Shown: in pieces, positions 1-21,318 of the stretch
Layout of the letters: each line of letters opens with the position of its first letter
Numbering within the stretch: the first letter of the stretch is position 1
IMG/VR virus record: IMGVR_UViG_2603880150_000003
Reading direction: 5' to 3' (one strand)
Length of the DNA stretch: 21,318 nt
DNA from: a virus
Taxonomy: Duplodnaviria > Heunggongvirae > Uroviricota > Caudoviricetes
Made by a program: the position numbers and the translations under genes
The notes under the pieces: generated by a model
What the model was told of the DNA's origin: nothing
What the model saw: only the letters and a program-made list of their open reading frames with translations
The model's database searches: none

Positions 1-222
1 TCAGTATCTCGATAAGCGCAGAGAAATGATGCAGTGGTGGGCGGATTGGCTTGATGAAAAAGTGGAGTAATCCGGACCGTACTTCTTTATCCAGGCATAA
101 AGGCTGTGGGTGGTGATATCGAGACGTGTTGCAACGCTGGCAACAGAATAACCGCGATCAATAACCTGTTTGACTGCTTCAGTTTTAAACTCTTCGGGAT
201 AACGCTTACCGCTCATGGGCAC
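1..222 (-). CDS. IS3-family transposase OrfA (HTH_Tnp_1-like N-terminal region), probably degenerate; stop codon at 1-3
   Basis: Translation MPMSGKRYPEEFKTEAVKQVIDRGYSVASVATRLDITTHSLYAWIKKYGPD matches the helix-turn-helix pattern of IS3-family OrfA proteins; the C-terminal 20 residues look unrelated, suggesting decay. Opposite orientation to the neighbouring IS fragment. Confidence 0.55.
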   Translation of the reverse strand: MPMSGKRYPEEFKTEAVKQVIDRGYSVASVATRLDITTHSLYAWIKKYGPDYSTFSSSQSAHHCIISLRLSRY

Positions 223-264
223 CTCTCTTTAAGCCATCTTAAATGACTCTGAGGTGTCTGTTAA

Positions 265-732
265 ACCCGTGGCGATTCAAAACTGCGTGTTACGTTCGCC
301 CTGGACTGTTGCGATCGTGAAGCCATAGACTGGGCCGCAAGCACGGGAGGTTACGATAAAGCGACAGTGCAGGATGTCATGTTAGGAGCGATAGAAAAAC
401 GCTTTGGCGATAAAGTACCGGAACAGTCCATCCAGTGGCTGACAGATAACGGTTCAGCGTATAGAGCGCATGAAACACGGCAGTTCGCCAGAGAGTTGAA
501 TCTGGAGCCCTGCACAACGGCAATCAGCAGTCCTCAGAGTAATGGAATGGCAGAAAGGTTCGTGAAAACGATGAAGGAAGACTACATCGCGTTCATGCCG
601 AAACCGAATGTAAGAACAGCATTGCATAATCTTGCAGTGGCGATCGAACATTACAATGAAAACCATCCGCACAGTGCGCTGGGTTATCGATCTCCGCGAG
701 AATATCGACGTCAGCGGGTAACGTTAACTTAA
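265..732 (+). pseudogene. IS2-like (IS3 family) transposase OrfB, C-terminal DDE-domain fragment
   Basis: In-frame translation from about 265 (..[82 protein letters not shown]) resembles the C-terminal catalytic region of IS2 InsD as I recall it; the N-terminal two thirds are missing, apparently cut off by the adjacent IS fragment. Confidence 0.6.
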
Positions 733-769
733 GATACACCCCCTGTCTGGAAATAAGGGGGCAAGAACA
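265..769 (+). mobile_element. Truncated IS2-like element, right end retained (terminal inverted repeat about 741-769)
   Basis: Sequence after the OrfB stop (..ccctgtctggaaataagggggcaagaaca) resembles the IS2 right terminal repeat (GTCTGGAAATATAGGGGCAAATCCA from memory) and ends in CA directly before the stop codon of the regulator gene at 774. Confidence 0.5.
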
Positions 770-773
770 ATGA

Positions 774-1526
774 TCAGATTCCCTGGTGAGTAAGAATTTT
801 ACTTTCTGAACTCCTCTGAGAGTATTGACTTGGAGAAACACCAAAATAACGTCTAAATACATAAGTAAAGTATGAGACACTGGCATAACCACAGACCTTA
901 GCTACTTTACTAATAGGATAACAACGAGTGCTGAGTAAATATTCAGCCATTTGCATCCTCTCATCAAGTATGATCTTACTGAATGATACCCCCTCTTCTT
1001 TCAATTTCCTCTTTAGTAAACTTTCGCTGAGATATAATCTTGATGATATATCCTTAAGACGCCATGGTGCAGATAAATCCGTATGAATAATCGTTTTAAC
1101 TTTAGCCCCTGTGCTTTTCAAACATTCAAACAGAAATACTCCAAATTGTTTTTCAGAAGAAAATGCAGAGAGACATGTAAAAGCAATAGACTCATCAAAA
1201 ATTTCTATGTATTCAGCACAGTGATTAGCCCAACTAATTAATCCTTTAATTAAACTGAAGTCAGCAAAGTTTATTTTTAAATAAGATGGATATTCCCTAC
1301 AATCAGAAATATCCCTTAAGTTATTAGCTTTCAAATAGCGACTAATAAACTCAGCGCCAAAATCCGCCACTATCACTCTTTCAGGATATGTCAGGAAAAA
1401 ATCTCTAGAGCTAGAGTCGACAAGTACAGATGAACCTCTCTCCAGAAACACACTCTCTTTTCCGAAATAAACATCAAAGGACTCCAAAATCAATATAACT
1501 GAACATGTAGTTGCCATATCATCCAC
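774..1526 (-). CDS. AraC/XylS-family transcriptional regulator (AppY/YdeO/GadX-like), low-GC gene
   Basis: 250-aa ORF; C-terminal region (..WRLKDISSRLYLSESLLKRKLKEEGVSFSKIILDERMQMAEYLL..CGYASVSYFTYVFRRYFGVSPSQY) has the double HTH signature of AraC-family regulators and resembles YdeO/AppY. Markedly AT-rich relative to the prophage genes. Confidence 0.8.
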   Translation of the reverse strand: MDDMATTCSVILILESFDVYFGKESVFLERGSSVLVDSSSRDFFLTYPERVIVADFGAEFISRYLKANNLRDISDCREYPSYLKINFADFSLIKGLISWANHCAEYIEIFDESIAFTCLSAFSSEKQFGVFLFECLKSTGAKVKTIIHTDLSAPWRLKDISSRLYLSESLLKRKLKEEGVSFSKIILDERMQMAEYLLSTRCYPISKVAKVCGYASVSYFTYVFRRYFGVSPSQYSQRSSESKILTHQGI

Positions 1527-2101
1527 CCAACTTAACTGAAACCAGGATGAAGTATATGCATATAAAGTTCACTTTGCCAAACTTCAGTATAAAAAACCAC
1601 ATAAAAAATAGGGTGTGATAAAAAACACCGTAACAATAAAGCAAAGGATTATAAATTCCGTTACAGTTACAAATGATACTCAAGAAACAATTCCTTAGGA
1701 AAAACTTATTTACAGCCAATAAGTAAGACACTTATATGATATCAAGTTTTCATAAAACATAACTAGGCTAAATAGCTGCGCCTAATACCGCTACACTTTT
1801 GCCAGCCCATATTTGCCTCCGGGTATTGACCCCTTCTCTACGCAACTTCAGTTCCCACCACCAACTTTGCGGCAGCTTTGTAGGATCAATGTCTAAAAGA
1901 ATAATGGTGACCGATAAGAAAACGACTGAATAACTGCAAATTTTCGCTCAAAACCTTCCTGTCAGATCCATAGCGAATCAAGTGCTGAATGTCACAGTAT
2001 CAAACAGAAAACAGTGACGATCTAACTCTTCAAGAATATTCTACGATTGTTCTGTTTAGGAAAAGCAAGGCGGGAAGTCGGGAGATAAGTCATTGATAAA
2101 G

Positions 2102-2163
2102 TGGCGGAGAGAGGGGGATTTGAACCCCCGGTAGAGTTGCCCCTACTCCGGTTTTCGAGACCG
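2102..2163 (-). other. Orphan 62-nt 3' fragment of tRNA-Ser(CGA) (serU-type), likely att-site remnant
   Basis: Reverse complement CGGTCTCGAAAACCGGAGTAGGGGCAACTCTACCGGGGGTTCAAATCCCCCTCTCTCCGCCA matches the 3' 62 nt of E. coli tRNA-Ser(CGA) including the CCA end; the match stops abruptly inside the anticodon stem, so no complete tRNA is present. Confidence 0.8.
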
Positions 2164-2906
2164 ATGATACAGAGTCGAAAAATCAAAGAGTTAAAAATTT
2201 TTCTTGGAATAAATGTCTTAAAATCGTACACGAAAAATCAATGAATTACATAACATTAAAGAAGAATATTCCAAGCCTTCTTGATGCTACCACCTGTTTT
2301 CAGGTGTCATTCAGACGTGATTTGCCCCAGATTGGGAAAGCACGCTTTTTTCTCAGCTATCGTCCTCTTATTTTGCCGTTACATTTCTTTTTGCACTCTA
2401 ATGATTAATTTACAATAATAATATCGGTAATTATTGAGTAATAATAAATTGATTATTGCAAATGTAATTTAATTCCATCTTCGCGTTATATTCCAATCTT
2501 TAATCTCCGCATGGAACAAGTTGCATGCGTGACTATATTAAGACAACTTATAACCACCAAAACATTTGCTTTGCAAGCAAAAACAGTGACCATTGACTCT
2601 AAGAAAATTCCGATCTATTGTTAGGGTCATCAAAGTTACTTAACAGTATTCCGAAATGAAAATACAAAGCAAGCTAATTGTCTTATTAAACATTATCATT
2701 GCATTTATATTATTTGAGCTTTTAGCTCAAAAATTTGGTTTGAGTACATTATTTTAAAGCAAGATAAACAATATCGGGCACTCTAGTTTTTATAATTAAC
2801 AATTAAACGTCCATAAAATGTTATTTACTTTTCTTCGCTATTGTCATATCTTAATATAGTGGCTTACGCCACTCTACTTTCATCACATTTTGTACGTTTA
2901 TGTACT

Positions 2907-2939
2907 CGCCATGAAGCTCTTTCATGGCGATTTTTTATT
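2907..2939 (+). terminator. Candidate intrinsic terminator (9-bp stem cgccatgaa/ttcatggcg, loop gctct, then attttttatt)
   Basis: Perfect inverted repeat followed by a T-run on the + strand, inside AT-rich non-coding DNA between the tRNA fragment and tfa. Confidence 0.3.
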
Positions 2940-3022
2940 CTTAATCCAAGAACATACTCCTTACCTATAGCAAAATCACTTTTTGAACAAAAGAATAACG
3001 TATTTAGGTAATCATTACGAAT

Positions 3023-3604
3023 TTACCCTATAGGTGCTACTGGCCATTCAATATCCGGTGCAGTTGTTGTATTAACACGGTTCAGCAACACCCGATACTT
3101 CTTCCAGGCTTCCAGCAACGAGGTTTCTTCCTCCGTTGCAATTTCCAGATCTGCAGCATCCTGAAGCGGCGCAATATGCTCACTGGCTACCTGCATCAGG
3201 CTGTTTTTTGTTTCTTCCGCCTCCCGGATCCGGAACAGTTTTTCTGCTTCTGCATCTTTCACCCAGGCTGTGCCGTTCCACTTCTGATATTCCCCTCCCG
3301 GCGACAACCAGGTAACATTTTCCGGTAACGGACCGAGTTCAGAAATAAATAACGCGTCGCCGGAAGCCACGTCATAAACCGTTTTACCCCGATGGTCTTC
3401 AACGAGATGCCACGATGCCTCATCACTGTTGAAAACAGCCACAAAGCCAGCAGGAATATCTGGTGGTGCAATATCGGTACTGTTTGCTGGCAGACCTGTA
3501 TGAGGCGGAATATATGCGTCACCTTCACCAATAAATTCATTAGTTCCGGCCAGCAGATTATAAATTTTTATGGTCCGTGGTTGTTCACTCATTCTGAATG
3601 CCAT
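3023..3604 (-). CDS. tfa: Tail fiber assembly protein Tfa (lambda Tfa-like)
   Basis: 193-aa translation [51 protein letters not shown].. is near-identical to lambda Tfa as recalled; start overlaps the stf stop by 1 nt. Confidence 0.9.
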
Positions 3605-6600
3605 TATGCAAGCCTCACAATATAGTTAAATGCGATGTTTTTGACGGTGTTTTCCGCGTTACCCGCAGCGTTAACGGTGATGGTATGTCCATGTGAGCCA
3701 ATCGCAACGGAGTGCGTATGAGCACCAATACCGACAGTATGTGCATGTGCGCCTGCGCTTGCAGCAGTGCCGGACAGCGAGTGGGTATGAGCACCATCTG
3801 ATGATGTCTTCCCTGCATTACGAGTCTGGCCACTACCGCTTGTTGTGCTCATAATCCCCGCGCTTAGATTTGAAATCGCAGTATAACCATTAGGAAAAAT
3901 GCTCGTGTTCGTGCCACCAAATGCACCGGAACTCTTGTGTTGGTGCGCACCGGCACTATTTGCTGTCCCGCTAATACTATGGGTATGTGCACCAGTGTTA
4001 TTCGTGGATTTGGTTCCGTAATCAAACGACGATGTGGTTTTCGTCCCCAAATCCGTACTGGATGCGCTGGCGCTGTGGGTGTGCGATTTAATGCCGTCCT
4101 GTTCCTGAGACAATACGGCACGACCACTGGCGGGCTTGCCCTTAATCGTCCAGCCACGCATATCAGGGATCACGCCTGACGGATAAGCAACTGCAAGTTT
4201 CGGGTATGCAGATTTGTCAAAAGTCTGCCCCTGCATCAGGGCATAGCCAGACGGAACGGTATCTGATGGCCACGGGATTGGTGCGCCGACTGGATAAAAC
4301 TCTGCAGGAGGATGAGCCGAGGTGTAAAGCTGCGCCCACGGCGACCAGTTTGCGTCGATCGTATCCCGTCGTGAACGAATAAATGCCGGAGCATGAGCAC
4401 CGCTTGTACCACTCCAGCCGATGAGTAACTCACCTTCGCCAACGGCTGTCATCCCTTTCAGGTGAATGATATTTCCATACGCTGTTGGATATCCGTTGTT
4501 ATACACCTCGTATAACTCAAGACCTGTTGCCCCCTGCGTATTGTCTGTCAGCGCGGTTACCCGACCTTTTGAAGCCAGATTAACTGATGATACTGCTGTT
4601 CCACCTGACGGTAATGCCCCAATCTCTGATGCCGTTGGCTTATTTCTGGAGTTATAGTCCCTTCGCCAGCCAGGTGAATAATCTGTTCCGTGATTAATAT
4701 AGGTAAACTGGGCGTTAGTTGTTCCACCACCAGTGGAGGTGGTCGGTGTGGTAATGCGGATCGTCATCGCTGACTTTATCCCCATTACTTCAATGACAGC
4801 TCCGGCGAGATGAATATTACCGCAGCCAGTATCAGTAATGATTTTATTATTGCCATAAGACCAGGAACCCTTGCACATCCAGTATGGATGGTTAAATGCT
4901 CCCTGAGAATCCAGCCACTCGATAAACTGTGCAGTCGTCCAGTTTCCTGTTGTTGTGCTTACTGACCCACCGAAGGCACGGCAGGCACCAATATTTTTCG
5001 TAAAGGTGTCTTTGCCAGGGATATCCGCACCGTTCTGATCTTTCTGCAGACGTTTCTCAGCATTGTCATTGGCTGCTTTTACTGCCTTTGGCGTTGCCGC
5101 CAGCGTTTCAGACGTGCTGTTGGTCGCGCTGCTTAGCTGGATTATCCCTTTCTGTGCTGTCGTTGCATCCTGTGCGGTGTATTTCCCGTTAGCCAGGTCA
5201 TACGCGGCCTTAACGGCTTTTGGTGTTGCCGCCAGTGACTCGGAAGTGCTGTTAGTCGCACTACTGAGCTGTACTATCCCCTTTTTCGTCGTGCTCGCAT
5301 CCTCAAGCGCCACGGCGGATGCAATATCCTCTGCCCGTTTTGCCGCTGTCTCAGCGCGCGTTGCTGCAGATTCCGCCGTACTTTTGCTCTGAGCTGCTGC
5401 CGTCGCACTACCAGCAGCCTCTGTCGCCTTCGTGGATGCCGTCGTGGCGCTGCCCTTCGCTGCTGACGCCTGTCTGGTCGCCTCATCTTTTGAAGCAGAC
5501 GCCGATGATGCCGATGACGCCGCCGAACTGGCGGACGATGCCGCTGCCGTTTTTGAGGATTCTGCACGGGTTTCCGAGGCTTTCGCGTTCGTTTCGGATG
5601 TCATCGCTGCGGATGCAGACCTCGCTGCTGCGCTGGCCTGTTCAGCGGCTTCGCCAGCCTTCGTTGTGGCTGTTGAAGCGGATGATGCGGCGCTTTCGGC
5701 CGATTTTCCGGCTGCGGTGGCACTGACTGAGGCCTGCCCGGCACTTGTTGACGCGGCACTGGCAGACGACGCAGCCGCTGTTTTTGAGCCTGCCGCAGCT
5801 GAGGCGCTCTGTCCCGCTGCCGTCTCAGAAGACCTGGCGTTCGTCTCGGACGTTTTTGCCGCCTTCGCGGAATTTCCTGCCGCCGTTGCCGAGGAAGCGG
5901 CACTACTGGCGCTTGATGATGCGTTCGTTTCTGATGATTTTGCCGCTTCTTTTGAGGCCGCCGCATCCCGGGCCGAGGTCGCAGCTTCTGATGCCTTCGT
6001 GGTCGCGGTGGATGCAGATGTGGCTGCTGATTGTTGTGACGCTGAAGCATTCGTTTCTGACGTTTTCGCCGCACCGGCACTGGTGGCCGCCGCGCTTTTT
6101 GAGGACTCTGCAGCGGCAGCACTTTTTGATGCTTCAGTGGCCTTTGTTGATGCCGTTCCTGCGCTGGAAGACGCTGACTGAGCCGACGACGCGGCCTGTC
6201 CGGCTGACGTGCTGGCTGCGCGTGCTGAGTCCGCAGCATCAGCCGCATGGGTTGCCGCCTCACGGGCTGATGTGCTGGCATCACTGGCTGACTTCTTCGC
6301 GGCTGCCGTGTTCTGTGCCACCGCGGACGCGTTACGCGCCACCTCTTCCACCATCAGTTCAAAACGGCGCAGTGCCTCAGGACGGGCATCATCCTCCGTC
6401 ATGGCACCGAGAAAATCATTCAGCGTACCGGGTTGAGAATCTTCATACACGGTGATGGTCCCGGCATGTGACGGCGGGAATCCTTCCACCAACAGAATAA
6501 CGCTGTACTGACCGTACTCCACATCCATGCTGTAACGCCCGGCTTCATCCGGATTCTCTGAGCCCACCGTGTTCACCACCACCGTGGTGCTGTTACGTCT

Positions 6601-6684
6601 GGCTTTCAGCTGAATGGTGCAGTTCTGTACCGGTTTTCCTGTGCCGTCTTTCAGGACTCCTGAAATCTTTACTGCCATATTCAC
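3604..6684 (-). CDS. stf: Side tail fiber protein Stf (StfR/lambda Stf-like), 1026 aa, with long Ala/Ser/Thr-rich region
   Basis: N-terminus [64 protein letters not shown].. matches Rac/lambda side tail fibers; contains tandem [27 protein letters not shown] motifs and a C-terminal His-rich GAHTHSxSGTA repeat region. Confidence 0.9.
5085..5290 (-). repeat. Tandem ~120-bp repeat inside stf encoding the duplicated SATNSTSE(S/T)[11 protein letters not shown] motif
   Basis: Two near-identical DNA blocks (about 5085-5165 and 5205-5285) are visible on the + strand; both translate on the - strand to the conserved tail-fiber motif. Confidence 0.6.
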
Positions 6685-6689
6685 CCCAC

Positions 6690-6715
6690 AAAAAAGCCCA
6701 CCGGTTCCGGCGGGC
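6690..6715 (-). terminator. Candidate intrinsic terminator between the lom remnant and stf
   Basis: Hairpin gcccacc..ggcgggc followed on the - strand by UUUUUU (the + strand shows aaaaaa at 6690-6695 before the stem). Confidence 0.4.
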
Positions 6716-6742
6716 TGTCATAACACTGTGTTACCTGGCTAA

Positions 6743-8353
6743 TCAGAATTTATAACCGACCCCAACGATGAATCCGTCAGTACGCCAGTCGCCACTGCCG
6801 GAGCCTTCATAAGCAATATCAACAACGACGGACGCTGCCGGATTAATCTGTATACCTGCACTCCACGCCACTGAGGTATGCCGCATTGCACTTTCGTCCC
6901 TGGCGGTGGTCGTCTCTTTCATATAGCCGGATGCATCATCACTCGGCTGACCAACAGCCTCCACGAATGCCGATTTGCCAACGGTGTTCACACTGCGAAC
7001 GTAAAAATAATAATCATAGCCCGGCCTGATATTGATACTGGCGGCTATCCAGTACAGCCCCGTGCCAAGGTAGCGGGCTGTGGTTTCAACCTGCCTGATA
7101 TCGGTAATCCGCTTTTCCGAGAACCAGAACTCAAACTGTACCGTCGGGTCATAAACGGCAAGATGCGGCGTGGCGGTTATCTGAAAATAGCCCGGCGTCA
7201 GCTCAATCCTCGACGGTGCTGCCGGTGCGGCAATCCGGAACGATACCGACGCCGGATCTCCCTGCTGCCCCCACGCATTTACCGCCCGGACTGTCAGCCT
7301 GTAGTTCCCCAGCGCCAGTTGCGTGAAGCGGTATGTGGTTTCCGTCGTCCGGGCCGTGCTGACCAGCCGCTCACTGCCGTCGTCCGCTGTTACGGTCAGA
7401 CGGAGCAGGAAGCTCACGCCCTTCACCACCTTCGGTGTGTCCCAGCGCGCCAGCACCTGATATTCCCCGCTGTCTGCAGTGACTTCTGCGGTCAGGTGCT
7501 GCACCGCTGGCGGCGTGACACCGTTCACCGTGCCACTCTGTTCGCCGTCAAAGTGCGCCCCGTTATCCACGATGGCCTCTTTTTCCGGCACATGCTGCAC
7601 GGCGGTGATGGCATACGTACCGTCATCGTTCTCACGGATACTCACACAGCGGAACAGGCGCTGGCGCAGCGTCGGCAGCTTCAGCCCCCACACGCTGTAT
7701 TCGGCAACGCCGTCAGGAACACGGCTCACTTTCACCTTAAGTCCGTCGGTGACGGACTGAACCTCCACGCTGACCGGATTACCACTTCCGTCAACCAGGC
7801 TTATCAGCGTGGTACCGGAGGATGGCAGCGTGATTTCACGGTCGAGCGTCAGCGTCCGGGTCTGGCTGTTCACCGCCAGCACGCGACCACCGGTGCTGAT
7901 ACCGGCATAGTCATCATCGCAGATTTCAATGACATCGCCCGGTACATGGCGAAGCCCTTCAGCACCCACGCTGAAATCCACGGTCTGCGTCTCCAGCAGT
8001 TCCGTTTTAATCAGCCACAGCCCGGCGCGGTGTGCCTGCCCCCGGCTGGTACAGCCAAAGGCATCCATCTTCGTGACATTACGACCGTAACGGGCAATGG
8101 CCTGCGTATCTTCAACAAGCTCTGTCGCCGTCTCCCAGCCGTTGTCCGGGTCAATCCAGTTCACCTCAACGGCATTATGGCGGTCCTTCAGGGCGCTGAA
8201 GCTGTAGCGGAACGGCGCGCCATCATCCGGCATCACCACATTACTGCGGTTATAGGTCCACACCTTATCCGACGGTCGGTCCTGCACGAACGTCAGCGTC
8301 TGCCCGTTCCATACCGGCATACAGCGCATCGCCGAGCAGAAATCACTGAGCAC
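6743..8353 (-). pseudogene. Tail tip/host-specificity protein J, central fragment, fused in frame to the C-terminal ~59 codons of lom
   Basis: Translation from [19 protein letters not shown].. through ..[20 protein letters not shown] matches the central part of lambda gpJ; the last 59 aa ([59 protein letters not shown]) match the Lom C-terminus with the Ail/Lom/PagC beta-barrel terminal signature. The J N-terminus and C-terminal receptor-binding domain are absent. Confidence 0.75.
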
Positions 8354-8888
8354 ATCCCACGCCTTGCGCTGTGTGGTCAGGTATCAGTTCATCCAGCGCG
8401 GCTGCTTTGTTCATGGCTTTGATGATATCCCGTTTCAGGAAATCAACATGTCGGTTTTCCAGTTCCGGAAAACGCCGCTGCACCGACAGGGGGATCCCGT
8501 CGAGAATACTGGCAATTTCACCTGCGATCCGCGACAGCACGAAAGTACAGAATGCGGTTTCCACCACTTCAGCGGAGTCTCTGGCATTTTTCAGCTCCTG
8601 TGCGTCGGCCTGCGCACGCGTAAGTCGATGGCGTTCGTACTCAATAGTCCCTGGCTGGAGATCTGTCTCGCTGGCCTGCCGCAGTTCTTCAACTTCCCGG
8701 CGCAGCTTTTCGTTCTCAATTTCAGCATCCCTTTCGGCATACCATCTTATAACGGCGGCAGAGTCATAAAGCACCTCATTACCCTTGCCACCGCCTCGCA
8801 GAACGGGCATTCCCTGTTCCTGCCAGTTCTGAATGGTACGGATACTCGCACCGAAAATGTCAGCCAGCTGCTTTTTGTTGACTTCCAT
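8343..8888 (-). pseudogene. nu1: Terminase small subunit Nu1 (NohD-like), C-terminally truncated at a deletion junction
   Basis: MEVNKKQLADIFGASIRTIQNWQEQGMPVLRGGGKGNEVLYD.. matches lambda Nu1 up to ..[10 protein letters not shown], then diverges ([11 protein letters not shown]) where the sequence enters the J reading frame. Confidence 0.8.
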
Positions 8889-9065
8889 TGTTCATTCCAC
8901 GGACAAAAACAGAGAAAGGAAACGACAGAGGCCAAAAAGCTCGCTTTCAGCACCTGTCGCTTCCTTTCTTTTCAGAGGGTATTTTAAATAAAAACATTAA
9001 GTTATGACGAAGAAGAACGGAAACGCCTTAAACCGGAAAATTTTCATAAATAGCGAAAACCCGCG

Positions 9066-9077
9066 AGGTCGCCGCCC
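9066..9077 (-). other. cosN cohesive-end site (GGGCGGCGACCT) with adjacent cosB-like region toward nu1
   Basis: Reverse complement of 9001-9090 reproduces the remembered lambda left end GGGCGGCGACCTCGCGGGTTTTCGCTATTTATGAAAATTTTCCGGTTTAAGGCG.. preceded by ..CCGACAGGTTACG, the lambda right end. Confidence 0.8.
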
Positions 9078-9276
9078 CGTAACCTGTCGGATCGCCGGAA
9101 AGGACCCGCAAAATGATAATAATTATCATCTGCATGTCACAACGTGCATCTACGCCATCAAACCACGTCAAATAATCAATTATGACGCAGGTATCATATT
9201 AATTGATCTGCATCAACTTAACGTAAAAACAACTTCAGACAATACAAATCAGCGACACTGAATACGGGACAACCTC

Positions 9277-9471
9277 ATGTCAACGAAGAACAGAACCCGC
9301 AGAACAACAACCCGCAACATCCGCTTTCCTAACCAAATGATTGAACAAATTAACATCGCTCTTGAGCAAAAAGGGTCCGGGAATTTCTCAGCCTGGGTCA
9401 TTGAAGCCTGCCGTCGGAGACTAACGTCAGAAAAGAGAGCATATACATCAATCCAGAGTGATGATGAATAA
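9277..9471 (+). CDS. Small prophage protein, YlcI-like (DUF3950-type), 64 aa
   Basis: ORF MSTKNRTRRTTTRNIRFPNQMIEQINIALEQKGSGNFSAWVIEACRRRLTSEKRAYTSIQSDDE; position between cos and bor corresponds to ylcI in DLP12-like prophages. Family assignment is from memory. Confidence 0.5.
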   Translation: MSTKNRTRRTTTRNIRFPNQMIEQINIALEQKGSGNFSAWVIEACRRRLTSEKRAYTSIQSDDE

Positions 9472-9708
9472 ACATCCCGGTTTCTTCCACCATCGCACCG
9501 GAAAAGCGACTATGAGGGTAACCCTGCGTCTGTCAGCACAGTAAAACCCGGTGTGCATCGTTTTTGATTATTCCCGCACACTCACGCAGAAGGAATTCCC
9601 CGTCGGGCTACGGTCATGGTTAATGCGGGAATACGGCGACGATACAGCGCAGCTAAAAGGGTAATGGACAGAAAGAGCGGTTTATTTCATTCCACAGGAT
9701 TCTGAGTG

Positions 9709-9718
9709 CCCCCCCCCC
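9709..9718. repeat. Homopolymeric C10 tract (G10 on the - strand) about 115 bp upstream of bor
   Basis: Directly counted: positions 9709-9718 are ten consecutive C residues, followed by tcctcc. Confidence 0.9.
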
Positions 9719-9834
9719 TCCTCCAATAGGCTGAGCATCCACCTATATAGTTTTAATTTTCATCAATCCATTTAACTATCGTTTAATTGTTGTCACATAG
9801 GATTCTGCCGTTTTTAACAATGCAGGATAATAAG

Positions 9835-10128
9835 ATGAAAAAAATGTTGTTTTCTGCCGCTCTGGCAATGCTTATTACAGGATGTGCTCAACAGACGTTT
9901 ACTGTTGGAAACAAACCGACAGCAGTAACACCAAAGGAAACCATCACCCATCATTTCTTCGTTTCGGGAATTGGACAGGAGAAAACTGTTGATGCAGCCA
10001 AAATTTGTGGCGGCGCAGAAAATGTTGTTAAAACAGAAACCCAGCAAACATTCGTAAATGGATTTCTCGGTTTTATTACTTTAGGCATTTATACTCCGCT
10101 GGAAGCGCGTGTGTATTGCTCACAATAA
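9835..10128 (+). CDS. bor: Bor lipoprotein (serum-resistance moron)
   Basis: MKKMLFSAALAMLITGCAQQTFTVGNKPTAVTPKETITHHFFVSGIGQEKTVDAAKICGGAENVVKTETQQTFVNGFLGFITLGIYTPLEARVYCSQ matches lambda Bor; lipobox LITGC; antisense to the lysis genes as in lambda. Confidence 0.85.
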   Translation: MKKMLFSAALAMLITGCAQQTFTVGNKPTAVTPKETITHHFFVSGIGQEKTVDAAKICGGAENVVKTETQQTFVNGFLGFITLGIYTPLEARVYCSQ

Positions 10129-10159
10129 TTGCATGAGTTGCCCATAGATATGGGCAGCT

Positions 10160-10621
10160 CTATCTGCACTGCTCATTAATATACTTCTGGGTTCCTTCCA
10201 GTTGTTTTTGCATAGTAATCAGCCTCTCTCTGAGGGTGAAATAATCCCGTTCAGCGGTGTCTGCCAGTCGGGGGGAGGCTGCATTATCCACGCCGGAGGC
10301 GGTGGTGGCTTCACGCACTGACTGACAGACTGCTTTGATGTGCAACCGACGACGACCAGCGGCAACATCATCACGCAGAGCATCATTTTCAGCTTTCGCA
10401 TCAGCTAACTCCTTCGTGTATTTTGCATCGAGCGCAGCAACATCACGCTGACGCATCTGCATGTCAGTAATTGCCGCGTTCGCCAGCTTCAGTTCTCTGG
10501 CATTTTTGTCGCGCTGGGCTTTGTAGGTAATGGCGTTATCACGGTAATGATTAACAGCCCATGACAGGCCGACGATGATGCAGATAACCAGAGCGGAGAT
10601 AATCGCGGTTACTCTGTTCAT
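10160..10621 (-). CDS. Rz: Spanin inner-membrane subunit Rz
   Basis: [85 protein letters not shown].. matches lambda Rz; ATGA overlap with the R stop. The listed ORF starts 4 codons earlier. Confidence 0.85.
10219..10401 (-). CDS. Rz1: Spanin outer-membrane lipoprotein Rz1, embedded in Rz in the +1 frame
   Basis: [60 protein letters not shown]: lipobox VVGC and proline-rich segment as in lambda Rz1. Confidence 0.75.
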
Positions 10622-11115
10622 TGCTGACCCCACAAACAGATTTCACGCTCAATCTCACGACGAGTCATGAGACCTTTCCATTGCTTACCGCCAGCATATG
10701 TCCAGCGACGTAGCTGATCACATGCGCCTTTAATATCACCCTGGTTTATTTTGCGAAGAAGCGTCGATGTTCTGAAATTGCCAGCACCCACGTTGTAGAC
10801 GAACGAGTAAAGAGCGCCGCGCGTTGTTTCCGGTATATCGACTTTGATGTACGGGTTAATTTGTCTGGCGACAGTGGCAAGGTCTTTATTCAGGAGGGCT
10901 TTGCACTCTGCTTCGGTATACGTTTTACCGGGAATGATGTCTTTTCCTGTATGCCCGTGACATACAGTCCATACACCAACTATGTCTTTGTAAGGATTAT
11001 GTCTCACACCTTCCAGACCATCGTTACCACTTGGGCCAGTGATTAATACAGATGCTATAGCAATAGCCCCGCCACCAATAGCAGCAGCAACAGCTTTTCG
11101 TAATGATGGAGGCAT
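10618..11115 (-). CDS. R: SAR endolysin (phage 21 R / RrrD-type lysozyme)
   Basis: 165 aa with N-terminal signal-anchor-release-like hydrophobic segment ([20 protein letters not shown]) and lysozyme-like core; unlike lambda R transglycosylase; follows the holin with overlapping stop/start. Confidence 0.85.
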
Positions 11116-11330
11116 TATCCACCTCTCGCAGCCTTGCGCTTATCTTCTTTAATCTTGAAATAAAGGTTTGTCAGGTACGTCAGCAGGCCAAATACCAGGC
11201 TACCCAGCACTCCAATTGCCGCCCACTGTGAGGGCGTGACTTTATCTAGCAGCTGTAAAAACCAGTACCCGGCACTACCTGCTGAGGTGCCATAGGCGAC
11301 ACCCGTTGTTAACTTATCCATGGATTTCAT
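11115..11330 (-). CDS. S: Holin, phage 21 S-type pinholin (EssD-like)
   Basis: 71 aa [71 protein letters not shown]; two TM segments and a charged C-terminus, matching S21. Confidence 0.85.
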
Positions 11331-11453
11331 AACCCCACCTCGCAGACAAAGCGGGTGTAAATTGAGGGAATACTACGAAACGTAACAGACTCGGAGTCAG
11401 TGAATAACTCAGGTATTGGGTTATCAGCTAATATCGAGACTCAAAAAATGGAA

Positions 11454-11475
11454 AAACCCGCTCGACGGCGGGTTT
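11454..11475 (-). terminator. Candidate hairpin/terminator upstream of S on the late strand
   Basis: Inverted repeat aaacccgc/gcgggttt with 6-nt loop; on the - strand the stem is followed by a short U-run. Weak. Confidence 0.3.
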
Positions 11476-11902
11476 AAGCTGTGTGACGAAGTAACCACTC
11501 TTAACAGCATAACCAATTTTTTACGTACGTAAACCACTAAATGATATTTGCGAGAATGCTACCGAGTATTGAAAACACCACTACAAATACATAAGAAAAT
11601 CTCAACAAATAACCAACAAATAATTTCCAGTGTTATTTTTAGCCGGTTTAAATTGAACCTTCAAATTATAGAGCACTTATAAATAACAGCCGTTAATATA
11701 AATTGGCTAACAGATTTATTTTTATTCAGCCAAGAGCCATGAATAGGATTCGATAGAAAAAAGTTCAGATAAAAATAGAGATCTACTTCACAAATCAAAC
11801 GAGAAACCAAAACTTACATCTTGAAATAATCACATTGATTAGATGAATATTTATCGCGCAGTGACATCATTTTTTAATAATAGTTCAAAAAAAGGGCTCA
11901 CG

Positions 11903-13000
11903 ATGAAAAAATTAACAGTGGCAATTTCTGCTGTAGCTGCATCAGTACTGATGGCGATGTCTGCTCAGGCAGCTGAAATTTATAATAAAGACAGTAACAA
12001 GCTGGATCTGTACGGGAAAGTTAATGCTAAGCACTACTTCTCCTCTAATGATGCAGATGATGGTGATACTACTTATGCCCGTCTTGGCTTCAAAGGTGAA
12101 ACCCAAATCAACGATCAACTGACTGGTTTCGGTCAGTGGGAATATGAATTCAAAGGCAACCGCGCTGAATCTCAAGGCTCCTCCAAAGACAAAACCCGTC
12201 TTGCATTTGCAGGCCTGAAATTCGGTGACTACGGCTCCATCGATTACGGCCGTAACTACGGTGTAGCATACGACATCGGCGCGTGGACTGACGTCCTGCC
12301 AGAATTCGGTGGTGACACTTGGACTCAAACCGACGTGTTCATGACTCAACGTGCAACTGGTGTTGCAACCTATCGTAACAACGACTTCTTTGGTCTGGTT
12401 GATGGTCTGAACTTTGCTGCTCAGTACCAAGGCAAAAACGATCGTAGCGATTTCGATAACTACACTGAAGGTAACGGTGATGGCTTCGGTTTCTCTGCTA
12501 CCTATGAATACGAAGGATTCGGTATCGGTGCAACTTATGCGAAATCTGATCGTACCGACACTCAAGTTAATGCAGGGAAAATTCTTCCTGAAGTATTTGC
12601 TTCCGGTAAAAATGCAGAAGTTTGGGCCGCAGGTCTGAAATATGACGCTAACAACATTTACCTGGCCACTACCTATTCTGAAACCCAGAATATGACTGTA
12701 TTTGCTGATCACTTCGTTGCTAATAAAGCCCAAAACTTCGAAGCTGTTGCACAATATCAGTTCGATTTCGGTCTGCGTCCGTCCGTTGCTTACCTGCAAT
12801 CTAAAGGTAAGGATCTTGGAGTATGGGGCGATCAGGACTTAGTCAAATATGTTGATGTAGGTGCAACCTATTACTTCAACAAAAATATGTCTACTTTCGT
12901 TGATTACAAAATCAACCTGCTTGACAAAAATGACTTCACTAAAGCACTCAGTGTAAGCACTGATGACATCGTTGCTGTAGGTCTGGTTTACCAGTTCTAA
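11903..13000 (+). CDS. nmpC: Outer membrane porin NmpC/OmpD/Lc (OmpC family), apparently intact
   Basis: [23 protein letters not shown] signal peptide, then [23 protein letters not shown].. and C-terminal ..VAVGLVYQF, the general-porin signature; SD aaaggg upstream. The listed ORF starts 20 codons upstream but 11903 fits the signal peptide. Convergent with Q, as for nmpC in DLP12. Confidence 0.9.
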
Positions 13001-13016
13001 TCTGATTACGAAAAAG

Positions 13017-13050
13017 ATATGTTGCGGGAGGCTTTGCCTCCCCAACATAT
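13017..13050 (-). terminator. Strong hairpin just after the nmpC stop; on the - strand followed by aucuuuuucg (candidate late-strand terminator, possibly tR')
   Basis: About 15-bp stem (atatgttgcgggaggc / gcctccccaacatat, one bulge) with ttt loop; rc of 13008-13016 gives a U-run after the stem on the - strand. Confidence 0.4.
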
Positions 13051-13137
13051 AAGTGGCTCCCTCAAGCCACTTCCTTTAGGAGCACAACCTTGCTTCTAAC
13101 TATATAAACCTTCTGTTATATATTACCCTTTATTTTT

Positions 13138-14712: not shown

Positions 14713-14885
14713 TTCCTCGCACGATATCTTAGCCACCGGATATCCCACAGGTGAGCTGTGTAATTGAAGGTTTTTACGTCAGATTCTTTTGGGATTGGCT
14801 TGCGTTTATTTCTGGAGCGTTTCGTTGGAAGGTATTTGCAGTTTTCGCAGATGATGTCGGTGAAACTTCGTCGCTGTCGCCTCAT
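14709..14885 (-). CDS. ninE: NinE
   Basis: 58 aa [58 protein letters not shown] resembles lambda/DLP12 NinE; ATGA overlap with the upstream Dam fragment stop. Confidence 0.75.
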
Positions 14886-15229
14886 GCCGCCCTCCTGACG
14901 CCCTGCCCGATCGCCATCAATGCCGCTTTGGATACGGTAGTAAACATCCGTCGAGGACTGATGAACAGTCGCCAAATCAGCAGCATGGAGCCTTTGCTGT
15001 TTTCCTTCTTCTCCAACCCTGTCGATGGTTCGATAAAATTAATCCGTCCATCAGTGATAATGCGAACTTCGTCGACACTCTCCAGAGCCTTGCTGAACCA
15101 TCCGACTGACATATCCTCTGGCACAAGCATAACTACCGTCTGTCGCTGTTGTATGCACTGCTCAGCGGCTTTTTCCACCCACGGCCTGATATTGCTGTAC
15201 GGTGGGTTATTCCAGATTGCACCGTGGCT
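14882..15229 (-). pseudogene. Phage Dam-type N6-adenine DNA methyltransferase, 3' fragment (contains the NPPY motif)
   Basis: Minus-strand translation from 15229: [71 protein letters not shown]..; catalytic NPPY motif present, no N-terminal domain; an in-frame stop lies immediately upstream (15230-15232). Confidence 0.7.
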
Positions 15230-15230
15230 T

Positions 15231-15542
15231 TACGAGTATTGCCGGAAGCGAGGCCTGTATCCGGATGCGGAGTCTTATCCGTGGAAATCAAACGCGCACT
15301 ACTGGCTGGTTACCAACCTGTATCAGAACATGCGGGCCAATGCGCTTACTGATGCGGAATTACGGCGCAAGGCTGCCGATGAACTGACCTGTATGACAGC
15401 GCGAATTAACCGTGGTGAGACGATACCTGAACCAGTAAAACAACTTCCTGTTATGGGCGGTAGACCTCTAAATCGTGCACAGGCTCTGGCGAAGATCGCA
15501 GAAATTAAAGCTAAGTTCGGACTGAAAGGAGCAAGTGTATGA
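15231..15542 (+). pseudogene. P: Replication protein P, C-terminal ~104 codons only
   Basis: YEYCRKRGLYPDAESYPWKSNAHYWLVTNLYQNMRANALTDAELRRKAADELTCMTARINRGETIPEPVKQLPVMGGRPLNRAQALAKIAEIKAKFGLKGASV matches the lambda P C-terminus; the preceding 160 codons of the listed ORF are antisense to ninE/dam and unrelated to P. Confidence 0.8.
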
Positions 15543-15829
15543 CGGGCAAAGAGGCAATTATTCATTACCTGGGGACGCATAATAGCTTCTGTGCGCCGGA
15601 CGTTGCCGCGCTAACAGGCGCAACAGTAACCAGCATAAATCAGGCCGCGGCTAAAATGGCACGGGCAGGTCTTCTGGTTATCGAAGGTAAGGTCTGGCGA
15701 ACGGTGTATTACCGGTTTGCTACCAGGGAAGAACGGGAAGGAAAGATGAGCACGAACCTGATTTTTAAGGAGTGTCGCCAGAGTGCCGCGATGAAACGGG
15801 TATTGGCGGTATATAGAGTTAAAAGATGA
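15539..15829 (+). CDS. ren: Ren
   Basis: MTGKEAIIHYLGTHNSFCAPDVAALTGATVTSINQAAAKMARAGLLVIEGKVWRTVYYRFATREEREGKMSTNLIFKECRQSAAMKRVLAVYRVKR matches lambda Ren; ATGA overlap with the P stop. Confidence 0.85.
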   Translation: MTGKEAIIHYLGTHNSFCAPDVAALTGATVTSINQAAAKMARAGLLVIEGKVWRTVYYRFATREEREGKMSTNLIFKECRQSAAMKRVLAVYRVKR

Positions 15830-15902
15830 CCATCTATATTACTGAGCTAATAACAGGCCTGCTGGTAATCGCAGGCCTTTTTATTTGGGGGAGAGGGAAG
15901 TC

Positions 15903-16343
15903 ATGAAAAAACTAACCTTTGAAATTCGATCTCCAGCACATCAGCAAAACGCTATTCACGCAGTACAGCAAATCCTTCCAGACCCAACCAAACCAATCGT
16001 AGTAACCATTCAGGAACGCAACCGTAGCTTAGACCAAAACAGGAAGCTATGGGCCTGCTTAGGTGACGTCTCTCGTCAGGTTGAATGGCATGGTCGCTGG
16101 CTGGATGCAGAAAGCTGGAAGTGTGTGTTTACCGCAGCATTAAAGCAGCAGGATGTTGTTCCTAACCTTGCCGGGAATGGCTTTGTGGTAATAGGCCAGT
16201 CAACCAGCAGGATGCGTGTAGGCGAATTTGCGGAGCTATTAGAGCTTATACAGGCATTCGGTACAGAGCGTGGCGTTAAGTGGTCAGACGAAGCGAGACT
16301 GGCTCTGGAGTGGAAAGCGAGATGGGGAGATCGGGCTGCATGA
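15903..16343 (+). CDS. ninB: NinB (Orf-family recombination mediator)
   Basis: MKKLTFEIRSPAHQQNAIHAVQQILPDPTKPIVVTIQERNRSLDQNRKLWACLGDVSRQVEWHGRWLDAESWKCVFTAALKQQD.. matches lambda NinB; SD gagggaag upstream. Confidence 0.9.
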   Translation: MKKLTFEIRSPAHQQNAIHAVQQILPDPTKPIVVTIQERNRSLDQNRKLWACLGDVSRQVEWHGRWLDAESWKCVFTAALKQQDVVPNLAGNGFVVIGQSTSRMRVGEFAELLELIQAFGTERGVKWSDEARLALEWKARWGDRAA

Positions 16344-16708
16344 CTATCAAATCAAATACGCCAGCACACGACAAGGACTGCTGGCAAACGCCGCTTTGGC
16401 TTTTTGATGCACTGGATATTGAGTTTGGATTCTGGCTGGATTCGGCAGCGAGCGACAAAAATGCTCTGTGTGCTCACTGGCTAACTGAGGCCGACGACGC
16501 GCTCAATTCTGAGTGGGTACACAAAGCATCTCCTGTTGAGTTAAGAACGAGTATTGAGATGGCACATAGCCTTGCTCAAATTGGAGTCAGGTTTGTGCCA
16601 ATACCAGTAGAAACAGACGAAGAATTTCATACGTTAGCCGCATCCCTTTCACAAAAGCTGGAAATGATGGTGGCGAAAGCAGAAGCAGATGAGAGAGACC
16701 AGGTATGA
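16340..16708 (+). pseudogene. Dam-type methyltransferase 5' fragment (62 codons, DCWQTP motif) fused in frame to an early-left small ORF (possibly lambda orf63-like)
   Basis: MTIKSNTPAHDKDCWQTPLWLFDALDIEFGFWLDSAASDKNALCAHWLTEADDALNSEWVH is the N-terminal half expected upstream of the NPPY fragment at 14882-15229; after His62 the sequence (KASPVELRTSIEMAHSLAQIG..) is unrelated to Dam. ATGA overlap with the ninB stop. Confidence 0.65.
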
Positions 16709-18413: not shown

Positions 18414-18566
18414 ATGGAGATGATAAATGCACTTCCGAGTCACAGGAGAATGGAATGGAGAGCCATTCAACAGAGTTATCGAAGCGGAGAACATCAACGA
18501 CTGCTACGACCACTGGATGATATGGGCGCAGATAGCACATGCAGACGTAACCAATATTCGAATTGA
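18414..18566 (+). CDS. Small ORF (50 aa) between ea8.5 and xis
   Basis: ATG at 18414, stop at 18564-18566; translation MEMINALPSHRRMEWRAIQQSYRSGEHQRLLRPLDDMGADSTCRRNQYSN. Lambda has an unnamed small ORF at this position, but coding status here is uncertain. Confidence 0.3.
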   Translation: MEMINALPSHRRMEWRAIQQSYRSGEHQRLLRPLDDMGADSTCRRNQYSN

Positions 18567-18585
18567 AGAACTGAAAGAACACCAA

Positions 18586-18606
18586 GCCGCCTGATGGCGG
18601 TTTTTT
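18586..18606 (+). terminator. Candidate intrinsic terminator upstream of xis
   Basis: Short GC stem (ccgcc/ggcgg, loop tgat) followed by tttttt. Confidence 0.4.
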
Positions 18607-18633
18607 CTTGCGTGTAATTGCGGAGACTTTGCG

Positions 18634-18852
18634 ATGTACTTGACACTTCAGGAGTGGAACGCACGCCAGCGACGCCCAAGAAGCCTTGAAACAGTTCGTC
18701 GATGGGTACGCGAGTGCAGGATATTCCCTCCTCCGGTTAAGGATGGAAGAGAGTATCTGTTCCACGAATCAGCGGTAAAGGTTGACTTAAATCGACCAGT
18801 AACAGGTAGCCTTTTGAAGAGGATCAGAAATGGGAAGAAGGCGAAGTCATGA
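18634..18852 (+). CDS. xis: Excisionase Xis
   Basis: MYLTLQEWNARQRRPRSLETVRRWVRECRIFPPPVKDGREYLFHESAVKVDLNRPVTGSLLKRIRNGKKAKS matches lambda Xis (72 aa); overlaps the int start. Confidence 0.9.
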   Translation: MYLTLQEWNARQRRPRSLETVRRWVRECRIFPPPVKDGREYLFHESAVKVDLNRPVTGSLLKRIRNGKKAKS

Positions 18853-19900
18853 GCGCCGGGATTTACCCCCTAACCTTTATATAAGAAACAATGGATATTA
18901 CTGCTACAGGGACCCAAGGACGGGTAAAGAGTTTGGATTAGGCCGAGACAGGCGAATCGCAATCACTGAAGCTATACAGGCCAACATTGAGTTATTTTCA
19001 GGACACAAACACAAGCCTCTGACAGCGAGAATCAACAGTGATAATTCCGTTACGTTACATTCATGGCTTGATCGCTACGAAAAAATCCTGGCCAGCAGAG
19101 GAATCAAGCAGAAGACACTCATAAATTACATGAGCAAAATTAAAGCAATAAGGAGGGGTCTGCCTGATGCTCCACTTGAAGACATCACCACAAAAGAAAT
19201 TGCGGCAATGCTCAATGGATACATAGACGAGGGCAAGGCGGCATCAGCCAAGTTAATCAGATCAACACTGAGCGATGCATTCCGAGAGGCTATAGCTGAA
19301 GGCCATATAACAACAAACCCGGTCGCAGCCACTCGCGCTGCAAAATCAGAGGTAAGGAGATCAAGACTTACGGCTGACGAATACCTGAAAATTTATCAAG
19401 CAGCAGAATCATCACCATGTTGGCTTAGACTTGCAATGGAACTGGCTGTTGTTACCGGGCAGCGAGTTGGTGATTTATGCGAAATGAAGTGGTCTGATAT
19501 CGTAGATGGATATCTTTATGTCGAGCAAAGCAAAACAGGCGTAAAAATTGCCATCCCAACAACATTGCATGTTGATGCTCTCGGGATATCAATGAAGGAA
19601 ACACTTGATAAATGCAAAAAGATTCTTGGCGGAGAAACCATAATTGCATCTACTCGTCGTGAACCGCTTTCATCCGGCACAGTATCAAGGTATTTTATGC
19701 GCGCACGAAAAGCATCAGGTCTCTCCTTCGAAGGGGATCCGCCAACCTTTCACGAGTTGCGCAGTTTGTCTGCAAGACTCTATGAGAAGCAGATAAGCGA
19801 TAAATTTGCTCAACATCTTCTCGGGCATAAGTCGGACACCATGGCATCACAGTATCGTGATGACAGAGGCAGGGAGTGGGACAAAATTGAAATCAAATAA
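18830..19900 (+). CDS. int: Integrase Int (lambda-type tyrosine recombinase)
   Basis: 356 aa MGRRRSHERRDLPPNLYIRNNGYYCYRDPRTGKEFGLGRDRRIAITEAIQANIELFSGHKHKPLTARINSDNSVTLHSWLDRYEKILASRGIKQKTL.. near-identical to lambda Int; 3' end points at the att core. Confidence 0.95.
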   Translation: MGRRRSHERRDLPPNLYIRNNGYYCYRDPRTGKEFGLGRDRRIAITEAIQANIELFSGHKHKPLTARINSDNSVTLHSWLDRYEKILASRGIKQKTLINYMSKIKAIRRGLPDAPLEDITTKEIAAMLNGYIDEGKAASAKLIRSTLSDAFREAIAEGHITTNPVAATRAAKSEVRRSRLTADEYLKIYQAAESSPCWLRLAMELAVVTGQRVGDLCEMKWSDIVDGYLYVEQSKTGVKIAIPTTLHVDALGISMKETLDKCKKILGGETIIASTRREPLSSGTVSRYFMRARKASGLSFEGDPPTFHELRSLSARLYEKQISDKFAQHLLGHKSDTMASQYRDDRGREWDKIEIK

Positions 19901-19954
19901 TGATTTTATTTTGACTGATAGTGACCTGTTCGTTGCAACAAATTGATAAGCAAT

Positions 19955-19987
19955 GCTTTTTTATAATGCCAACTTAGTATAAAAAAG
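19955..19987. other. Prophage-host att junction (int-proximal); 15-bp lambda core GCTTTTTTATACTAA on the - strand at 19973-19987
   Basis: ..gttgcaacaaattgataagcaatgcttttttataatgccaacttagtataaaaaagc matches the lambda P arm and core as recalled; the following aggc.. matches the bacterial arm (CTGCTTTTTTATACTAA.. in reverse complement). Confidence 0.8.
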
Positions 19988-20034
19988 CAGGCTTCAACGG
20001 ATTCATTTTTCTATTTCATAGCCCGGAGCAACCT

Positions 20035-21318
20035 GTGAACACATTTTCAGTTTCCCGTCTGGCGCTGGCATTGGCTTTTGGCGTGACGCTGACCGCCTGT
20101 AGCTCAACCCCGCCCGATCAACGTCCTTCTGATCAAACCGCGCCTGGTACCTCTTCTCGCCCGATTCTGTCGGCAAAAGAAGCGCAGAATTTCGATGCTC
20201 AACACTATTTTGCATCCCTGACACCAGGTGCTGCAGCGTGGAATCCTTCCCCGATTACCCTGCCTGCGCAACCTGACTTTGTTGTCGGCCCGGCGGGCAC
20301 TCAAGGTGTAACGCATACCACGATTCAGGCGGCGGTAGATGCGGCAATTATCAAGCGTACCAACAAGCGCCAGTATATTGCCGTGATGCCTGGTGAGTAT
20401 CAGGGAACGGTATATGTCCCTGCCGCTCCGGGTGGAATTACTCTGTACGGTACAGGTGAAAAACCGATTGATGTGAAGATTGGGCTTTCCCTTGATGGTG
20501 GCATGAGCCCTGCCGACTGGCGTCACGACGTCAACCCGCGCGGCAAATATATGCCAGGTAAACCAGCGTGGTATATGTACGATAGCTGCCAGAGCAAACG
20601 CAGCGACAGTATCGGTGTTCTCTGCTCTGCGGTCTTCTGGTCACAAAACAATGGCCTGCAACTGCAAAATCTGACCATCGAAAACACGCTGGGCGATAGC
20701 GTAGATGCAGGTAACCATCCGGCGGTGGCACTGCGTACTGATGGTGACCAGGTACAGATTAACAACGTTAACATTCTCGGTCGTCAGAACACCTTCTTTG
20801 TCACCAACAGCGGTGTGCAGAACCGTCTGGAAACAAATCGTCAGCCGCGTACGCTGGTGACCAACAGCTACATTGAAGGGGATGTGGATATCGTTTCTGG
20901 TCGCGGCGCAGTGGTGTTCGATAACACCGAATTCCGCGTGGTGAACTCACGTACTCAGCAAGAAGCGTATGTGTTTGCACCGGCTACGCTGTCCAACATT
21001 TACTACGGTTTCCTCGCCGTAAACAGCCGTTTCAATGCTTTCGGTGATGGTGTGGCGCAACTGGGCCGCTCGCTGGATGTTGATGCCAATACCAACGGTC
21101 AGGTGGTGATCCGTGATAGCGCCATCAACGAAGGTTTTAACACGGCTAAACCGTGGGCCGATGCGGTGATCTCTAATCGTCCGTTTGCGGGTAATACCGG
21201 CAGCGTAGATGATAACGACGAAATACAGCGCAATCTGAATGACACTAACTACAACCGCATGTGGGAATACAATAACCGCGGCGTGGGTAGTAAAGTGGTT
21301 GCAGAGGCGAAGAAGTAA
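20035..21318 (+). CDS. ybhC: YbhC, outer-membrane lipoprotein of the pectinesterase/acyl-CoA thioesterase family (host gene next to attB-lambda)
   Basis: 427 aa, lipoprotein signal MNTFSVSRLALALAFGVTLTAC, translation matches E. coli YbhC as recalled; higher-GC chromosomal-type sequence. Confidence 0.9.
   Translation: MNTFSVSRLALALAFGVTLTACSSTPPDQRPSDQTAPGTSSRPILSAKEAQNFDAQHYFASLTPGAAAWNPSPITLPAQPDFVVGPAGTQGVTHTTIQAAVDAAIIKRTNKRQYIAVMPGEYQGTVYVPAAPGGITLYGTGEKPIDVKIGLSLDGGMSPADWRHDVNPRGKYMPGKPAWYMYDSCQSKRSDSIGVLCSAVFWSQNNGLQLQNLTIENTLGDSVDAGNHPAVALRTDGDQVQINNVNILGRQNTFFVTNSGVQNRLETNRQPRTLVTNSYIEGDVDIVSGRGAVVFDNTEFRVVNSRTQQEAYVFAPATLSNIYYGFLAVNSRFNAFGDGVAQLGRSLDVDANTNGQVVIRDSAINEGFNTAKPWADAVISNRPFAGNTGSVDDNDEIQRNLNDTNYNRMWEYNNRGVGSKVVAEAKK

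Follow-up and report, generated by a model that had tools for sequence, protein, structure and literature searches.

The window, by which we mean the whole stretch of 21,318 nucleotides that was analyzed, ends on its right in host DNA. The host gene ybhC, which lies on the gal side of attB in the K-12 layout ybhC-attB-ybhB, occupies positions 20035–21318 (plus strand, from the RefSeq annotation of the matching genome) and is cut by the window end. To its left lie the bacterial B arm of attB (19989–20034, minus strand), which extends into ybhC, then a 15-bp core and a lambda P' arm (19901–19973, minus strand), which runs from the core to the int stop codon at 19900 and thus stands directly downstream of int. 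The int gene (18830–19900, plus strand) is intact and encodes a lambda-type tyrosine integrase of 356 residues, of which 352 are shared with lambda Int and all 356 with the Int of phage mEp332; xis (18634–18852, plus strand), also intact, encodes a 72-residue excisionase matching lambda Xis at 71 positions and mEp332 Xis at all 72. Both proteins are therefore 99% identical to those of lambda, and the int-xis-attL DNA (18523–19989) has 100% nucleotide identity with mEp332. At the other end of the element tfa (3023–3604, minus strand; Pfam Caudo_TAP), a tail fibre assembly gene, is the last phage structural gene before 3 kb of cargo that reaches the left edge of the window.

An exact copy of the lambda core, GCTTTTTTATACTAA, is present at 19974–19988 on the minus strand, and the window has no other. 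It is the common core O of an attL, contains the 7-bp overlap TTTATAC and is identical to the cores of lambda and K-12. Read on the minus strand, the sequence across the junction is ...GAAGCCT-GCTTTTTTATACTAA-GTTGGCATTATAAAAAAGC..., and both flanks could be assigned. On the ybhC side, 260 of 260 bases match the left flank of K-12 MG1655 attB; on the int side, 120 of 120 match the P' side of lambda attP, the P' arm being also 100% identical to that of mEp332. We take this arm to hold the arm-type Int sites P'1–P'3 and the IHF site H'. Within it, at 19955–19969, lies GCTTTTTTATAATGC, a natural imperfect inverted copy of the core (12/15) that belongs to the lambda-type P' arm. The segment 19955–19988 is thus attL (B-O-P'), the int-proximal junction of host and prophage. 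The original prediction had placed a single att junction here, beside ybhC, and that is what we found; its span of 19955–19987 takes in the inverted copy and the core but stops one base short of the core end, and the arm that it named as lambda P is P'.

It had also stated that there is no second copy of the core left of tfa, and this holds for the window, where the best further matches were 13/15 at 1584–1598 and 12/15 at 2929–2943. The first of these, GGTTTTTTATACTGA (minus strand), keeps the full TTTATAC overlap and lies about 60–70 nt upstream of the start of an AraC-family gene. We considered it as a relic or secondary att site and rejected it, as it has no arm homology and is indistinguishable from chance: about 0.1 core-like matches at two or fewer mismatches are expected per 48 kb, versus the one extra match found.

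The element between the tail fibre end and attL is a defective (cryptic) lambdoid prophage that has neither the immunity and replication region nor the A-to-J morphogenesis genes. It is most similar to the phages mEp332 (PV340541) and PhiR70_1 (PV340577), to which its tail fibre end, cargo and P arm are colinear at 99.3–99.4% identity, and its block of nin, Q, porin, lysis and Nu1 genes is 98.4% identical. The element is 20.2 kb long, versus 46.2 kb for mEp332, from which it differs by three deletions and one inversion. The deletions correspond to mEp332 3420–11834 (exo, bet, gam, kil, the N region, cI, cro, cII, O and the N-terminus of P), 19973–35725 (A through the N-terminus of J) and 37187–38831 (the C-terminus of J and the N-terminus of lom). 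Consequently pL, N, cI, cII, O and most head and tail genes are gone.

The inversion, of mEp332 11835–13125, lies at window positions 15225–16516 and contains the C-terminus of P, ren, ninB and the N-terminal part of a dam methyltransferase gene. It is coupled to the 8.4-kb deletion that removed the immunity and replication region, and one of its breakpoints splits the methyltransferase gene, the other half of which is at 14882–15229 (minus strand). The junctions of the other two deletions fall within 6743–8383, one joining Nu1 to internal J at about 8380–8383 with a 4-nt overlap and one joining J to lom at about 6822–6923; together they produce a 536-residue chimeric J'-Lom' ORF, annotated in RefSeq as two pseudogenes. 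Retained cargo genes include an iss/bor serum-survival lipoprotein gene (9835–10128) and a gene (11843–13000) that lies between Q and the lysis genes and encodes an OmpC/NmpC-like porin, both of which are also present in mEp332.

The intact int and xis genes are probably not expressed in the remnant, because pL, N and cII have been lost, a search of the plus strand from position 15000 to xis found no sigma-70-like promoter, and five terminator-like hairpins, which are weak evidence, lie upstream of xis on the same strand.

The cargo (1–3022) is the equivalent of the lambda b region, spanning from tfa to the P arm of a second att site, and is colinear with the end of mEp332, ungapped and at 99.4% identity. 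Proceeding leftward from the C-terminus of the tail fibre, the order is tfa, a tRNA-Ser fragment (2102–2163, minus strand) within a segment derived from the serU locus (1824–2163), the end fragment of an IS630-family element (1768–1823), an AraC-family regulator (774–1517, minus strand), two IS3-family fragments (280–732 and 70–216), the 3' fragment of an integrase gene of the intS type (to position 70) and the P arm. The tRNA-Ser fragment, the regulator and the IS fragments had all been noted in the original prediction and all are real; they had been read there as foreign DNA in which the tail fibre side ends in place of an att site. The comparison with functional phages points elsewhere, since window positions −226 to 4296 align without gaps to mEp332 41684–46206 (99.3%), and the end of PhiR70_1 is 99.36% identical to the corresponding segment of the best-matching genome described below (L001 24743–28000). 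Because the plaque-forming mEp332 and PhiR70_1 also have the IS fragments and the regulator, ungapped and in an identical order, these are old phage cargo and not the scar of an event that removed an att site. By sequence comparison, then, the DNA left of tfa is the phage's own b-region cargo and not a rearranged end.

Of 5426 complete E. coli genomes, 645, O157:H7 strains among them, contain the AraC regulator together with its upstream region (740–1830) at no less than 98.5% identity. The intS-type 3' end at the outer edge of the cargo consists of 27 codons (L001 24972–25055, window −13 to 70, plus strand) and directly abuts the lambda-type P arm. The same junction of integrase fragment and P arm is present in mEp332, in PhiR70_1 and in the classical phage 434, and since phage 434 shares it the junction must be old.

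To read beyond position 1, the left flank of the window was deduced from near-identical genomes. The best match is E. coli F3_13_1_3 (NZ_CP074754.1, 3184985–3206302), which is identical at 21317 of 21318 bases with a sole mismatch at 15003; the second-best match carries an IS insertion. Coordinates of the F3_13_1_3 locus (L001) are used here for attR and the left flank. In this genome a second core, ACTTTTTTATACTAA, lies 225–239 bp left of position 1 (L001 24747–24761, minus strand). This core is flanked on its inner side by a lambda-type P arm and on its outer side by the K-12 B' arm (120/120); ybhB ends 330 bases before position 1, and beyond it are bioA, bioB, bioF, bioC, bioD and uvrB. An identical attR string stands directly left of the window match in strain AH21 and in five further assemblies retrieved with the tfa protein, giving seven in all with F3_13_1_3 and AH21, and three of the five are at 100% identity from window position −585 to 3715. 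Every assembly examined that shares the left end of the window has this attR. The core-to-core distance from attL to attR is 20,212 bp. In the source of the window we therefore expect the sequence left of position 1 to read ...CCGTTTCACATTCA-ACTTTTTTATACTAA-CTTGAGCGAAACGGG..., followed by ybhB.

These findings settle the two possibilities that had been raised for the second att, namely that it lay beyond the window or that it had been lost through IS-mediated rearrangement, fixing the element in the chromosome. The first was correct, in that attR is located 225–239 bp left of position 1 and is followed by the B' arm, ybhB and bioA; the genome search that had been proposed, for a second core and for ybhB/bio on the far side, found both left of position 1, the very result named in advance as one that would count against the idea of a missing att. 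The second does not hold, as attR is intact and the IS fragments are common to the plaque-forming mEp332 and PhiR70_1. What had appeared to be a tail fibre side without an att site is explained by the window stopping 224 bases short of attR. With high confidence, we interpret 19955–19988 as the attL of a defective mEp332-like prophage that is bounded at both ends, with its attR just outside the window; as a whole, the account of a 20.2-kb lambdoid element lying between attL and attR is very probably right.

The attR (P-O-B') looks competent, to judge from its similarity to the sites of working phages. Its core matches that of lambda at 14 of 15 positions, the single mismatch being G to A at the first core base. 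This position belongs to the C core-type site and is not part of the 7-bp overlap TTTATAC, in which strand exchange takes place. The same A variant is present in the cores of mEp332 and PhiR70_1. In its distal half the P arm does not vary between lambda, 434, mEp332, PhiR70_1 and F3_13_1_3; this half carries two Int-binding sites annotated in the lambda record, beyond which is an inverted-repeat stretch; we presume that the two sites are P1 and P2 and that the adjoining repeat is the sib/tI hairpin. The core-proximal half of the P arm (L001 24762–24860), where the Xis, Fis and IHF H2 sites lie, has at least three alleles, that of lambda, that of 434 and that shared by mEp332 and F3_13_1_3, although the Int and Xis proteins of these elements are 99–100% identical.

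Of the alternatives to a usable attR, the one that survives best is that the site is present but inactive, with the core G-to-A change and the diverged core-proximal P arm blocking excision so that the element is fixed at the level of att. The 14/15 core would be in keeping with this, as would the P arm, which is identical to that of lambda at only 169 of 260 positions in an ungapped comparison and has three SNPs relative to mEp332. We nevertheless consider it improbable. The attR is 98.8% identical to that of mEp332, the three SNPs lying in the core-proximal P arm, and 99.2% identical to that of PhiR70_1 over 258 bases (about two mismatches); the A variant and the arm type are shared with PhiR70_1 and with mEp332, a phage kept as an MG1655 lysogen that gives plaques after mitomycin C induction (PMC3442831). 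In addition, the core change is outside the 7-bp overlap, and by eye a match to the IHF consensus, TATCAACGACTTA, is retained at the H2 position. Because the att sites and the recombinase genes are identical or nearly identical to those of the inducible mEp332, we infer that both sites and int/xis are competent. If the element is immobile or fixed, the likely cause would accordingly be lost expression and not a lost att.

Less probable still, and in our view very unlikely, is that the true source genome differs just left of position 1, for example by a strain-specific deletion or inversion that removed attR. No genome matches the window at all 21318 of 21318 positions, the best differing by one SNP and the second carrying its IS insertion, which leaves some room for this idea; against it, attR is found in every assembly with this left end, three of them being 100% identical over −585 to 3715, and the first bases of the window are already within the intS fragment that abuts the P arm in mEp332, PhiR70_1 and 434. 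We can virtually dismiss the idea that a rearrangement mediated by IS elements destroyed the second att and left the prophage with only one att end and unable to leave the chromosome: the IS3-family and IS630 fragments between tfa and the window edge and the lack of a second core in the window suggested it, but seven assemblies have attR 225 bp outside the window, complete with P arm, core and B' arm and followed by ybhB and bioA, the IS fragments occupy identical positions without gaps in the functional mEp332 and PhiR70_1, and the tail fibre end is not joined to unrelated DNA but is colinear with that of a functional phage.

On the reading that we favor, the doubly bounded prophage arose by Int recombination of the lambda type, in which a phage attP (P-O-P') recombined with the E. 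coli attB (B-O-B') in the ybhC/ybhB gap, strand exchange taking place inside the 7-bp overlap TTTATAC, to yield attL; the reciprocal attR (P-O-B') is the site that persists 225–239 bp beyond the left window edge, beside ybhB and bioA. The remnant may now be stable because pL, N, cI, cII and most morphogenesis genes have been lost and Xis and Int are probably silent. If a lambda-att phage were to supply Int and Xis in trans, with IHF and Fis provided by the host, a circle of 20,212 bp would be expected to be excised.

The cargo holds, in addition, a trace of a different integration site. The segment 1824–2163 is 96.8% identical to K-12 2,043,190–2,043,529 and consists of the 3' 62 nt of serU, the gene for tRNA-Ser(CGA), and 278 nt of the chromosome downstream of it. 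ARAGORN found no tRNA in the window, the tRNA-Ser piece being too short for this program; it surfaced through weak Rfam matches to tRNA-like models, followed by BLAST comparison with K-12 serU. The assembly GCA_031222665.1 (L014) has the same tfa end, there joined to chromosomal DNA at the identical position of serU, beside yodB, zinT and msrQP. As the same boundary of phage and host is thus present in a genuine serU prophage, the cargo appears to contain captured host DNA and, with it, the fossil attR of a lambdoid prophage that integrated at serU, and this fossil is also carried by the viable lambda-att phages mEp332 and PhiR70_1. The 56 nt at 1768–1823, which are 91–96% identical to IS630-family ends, lie precisely where the captured serU flank breaks off and the AraC segment begins. 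We also considered whether the integrase fragment at the window start could be from the serU-specific integrase of the fossil, and rejected this, as it matches intS-type 3' ends found beside the tRNA-Arg gene argW.

As to how the fossil arose, we give roughly even odds to the proposal that the mEp332/PhiR70_1 lineage descends from an aberrant excision of the "bio type" of a serU prophage, which may have kept attR and its flank and lost its own integration module, a lambda int-att module being gained later. If this is true, the switching of integration sites in lambdoid phages would be traceable.

The arrangement as a whole is an ordinary and already known one, a decayed but normally bounded lambda-like prophage in the textbook lambda site. 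Its orientation is that of lambda, with the gal side, attL and int at one end and the tail fibres, attR and the bio side at the other. It differs from lambda in its core-proximal P arm allele, which is nearer to those of 434 and mEp332, in having A and not G as the first base of the attR core, and in the other cargo of its b region. Lambda-like defective prophages at ybhC-ybhB have been described in E. coli B ("lambda B") and Crooks/ATCC 8739 ("lambda Cr") (PMC3032704, Table 2); these share both the insertion site and the kind of remnant, and the attL of ATCC 8739 is 100% identical to that of the window over 401 bases. The literature on the genome structure of mEp332 and PhiR70_1 and on the E. 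coli B remnant provides indirect support only. The ybhC-ybhB site has also been regarded as a common locus for islands (PMC9580842). In a set of 5426 complete E. coli genomes, in which attL and attR were counted separately, we found 1920 with attL, 1920 with attR and 3487 with an uninterrupted attB; the 1920 occupied and 3487 empty sites account for 5407 genomes. The lambda site is therefore occupied in about 35% of complete E. coli genomes.

The finding has little import beyond correct annotation, and it illustrates that a missing second att in a window of fixed size should be put down to the window edge until the flanking sequence has been examined. The fossil serU junction would provide a small, clean example of the swapping of integration modules among lambdoid phages. 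Finally, because the remnant appears, from identity with working phages, to have kept both attL and attR in usable form, its excision in trans would be possible, or lambda-att phages could use it as a landing site.
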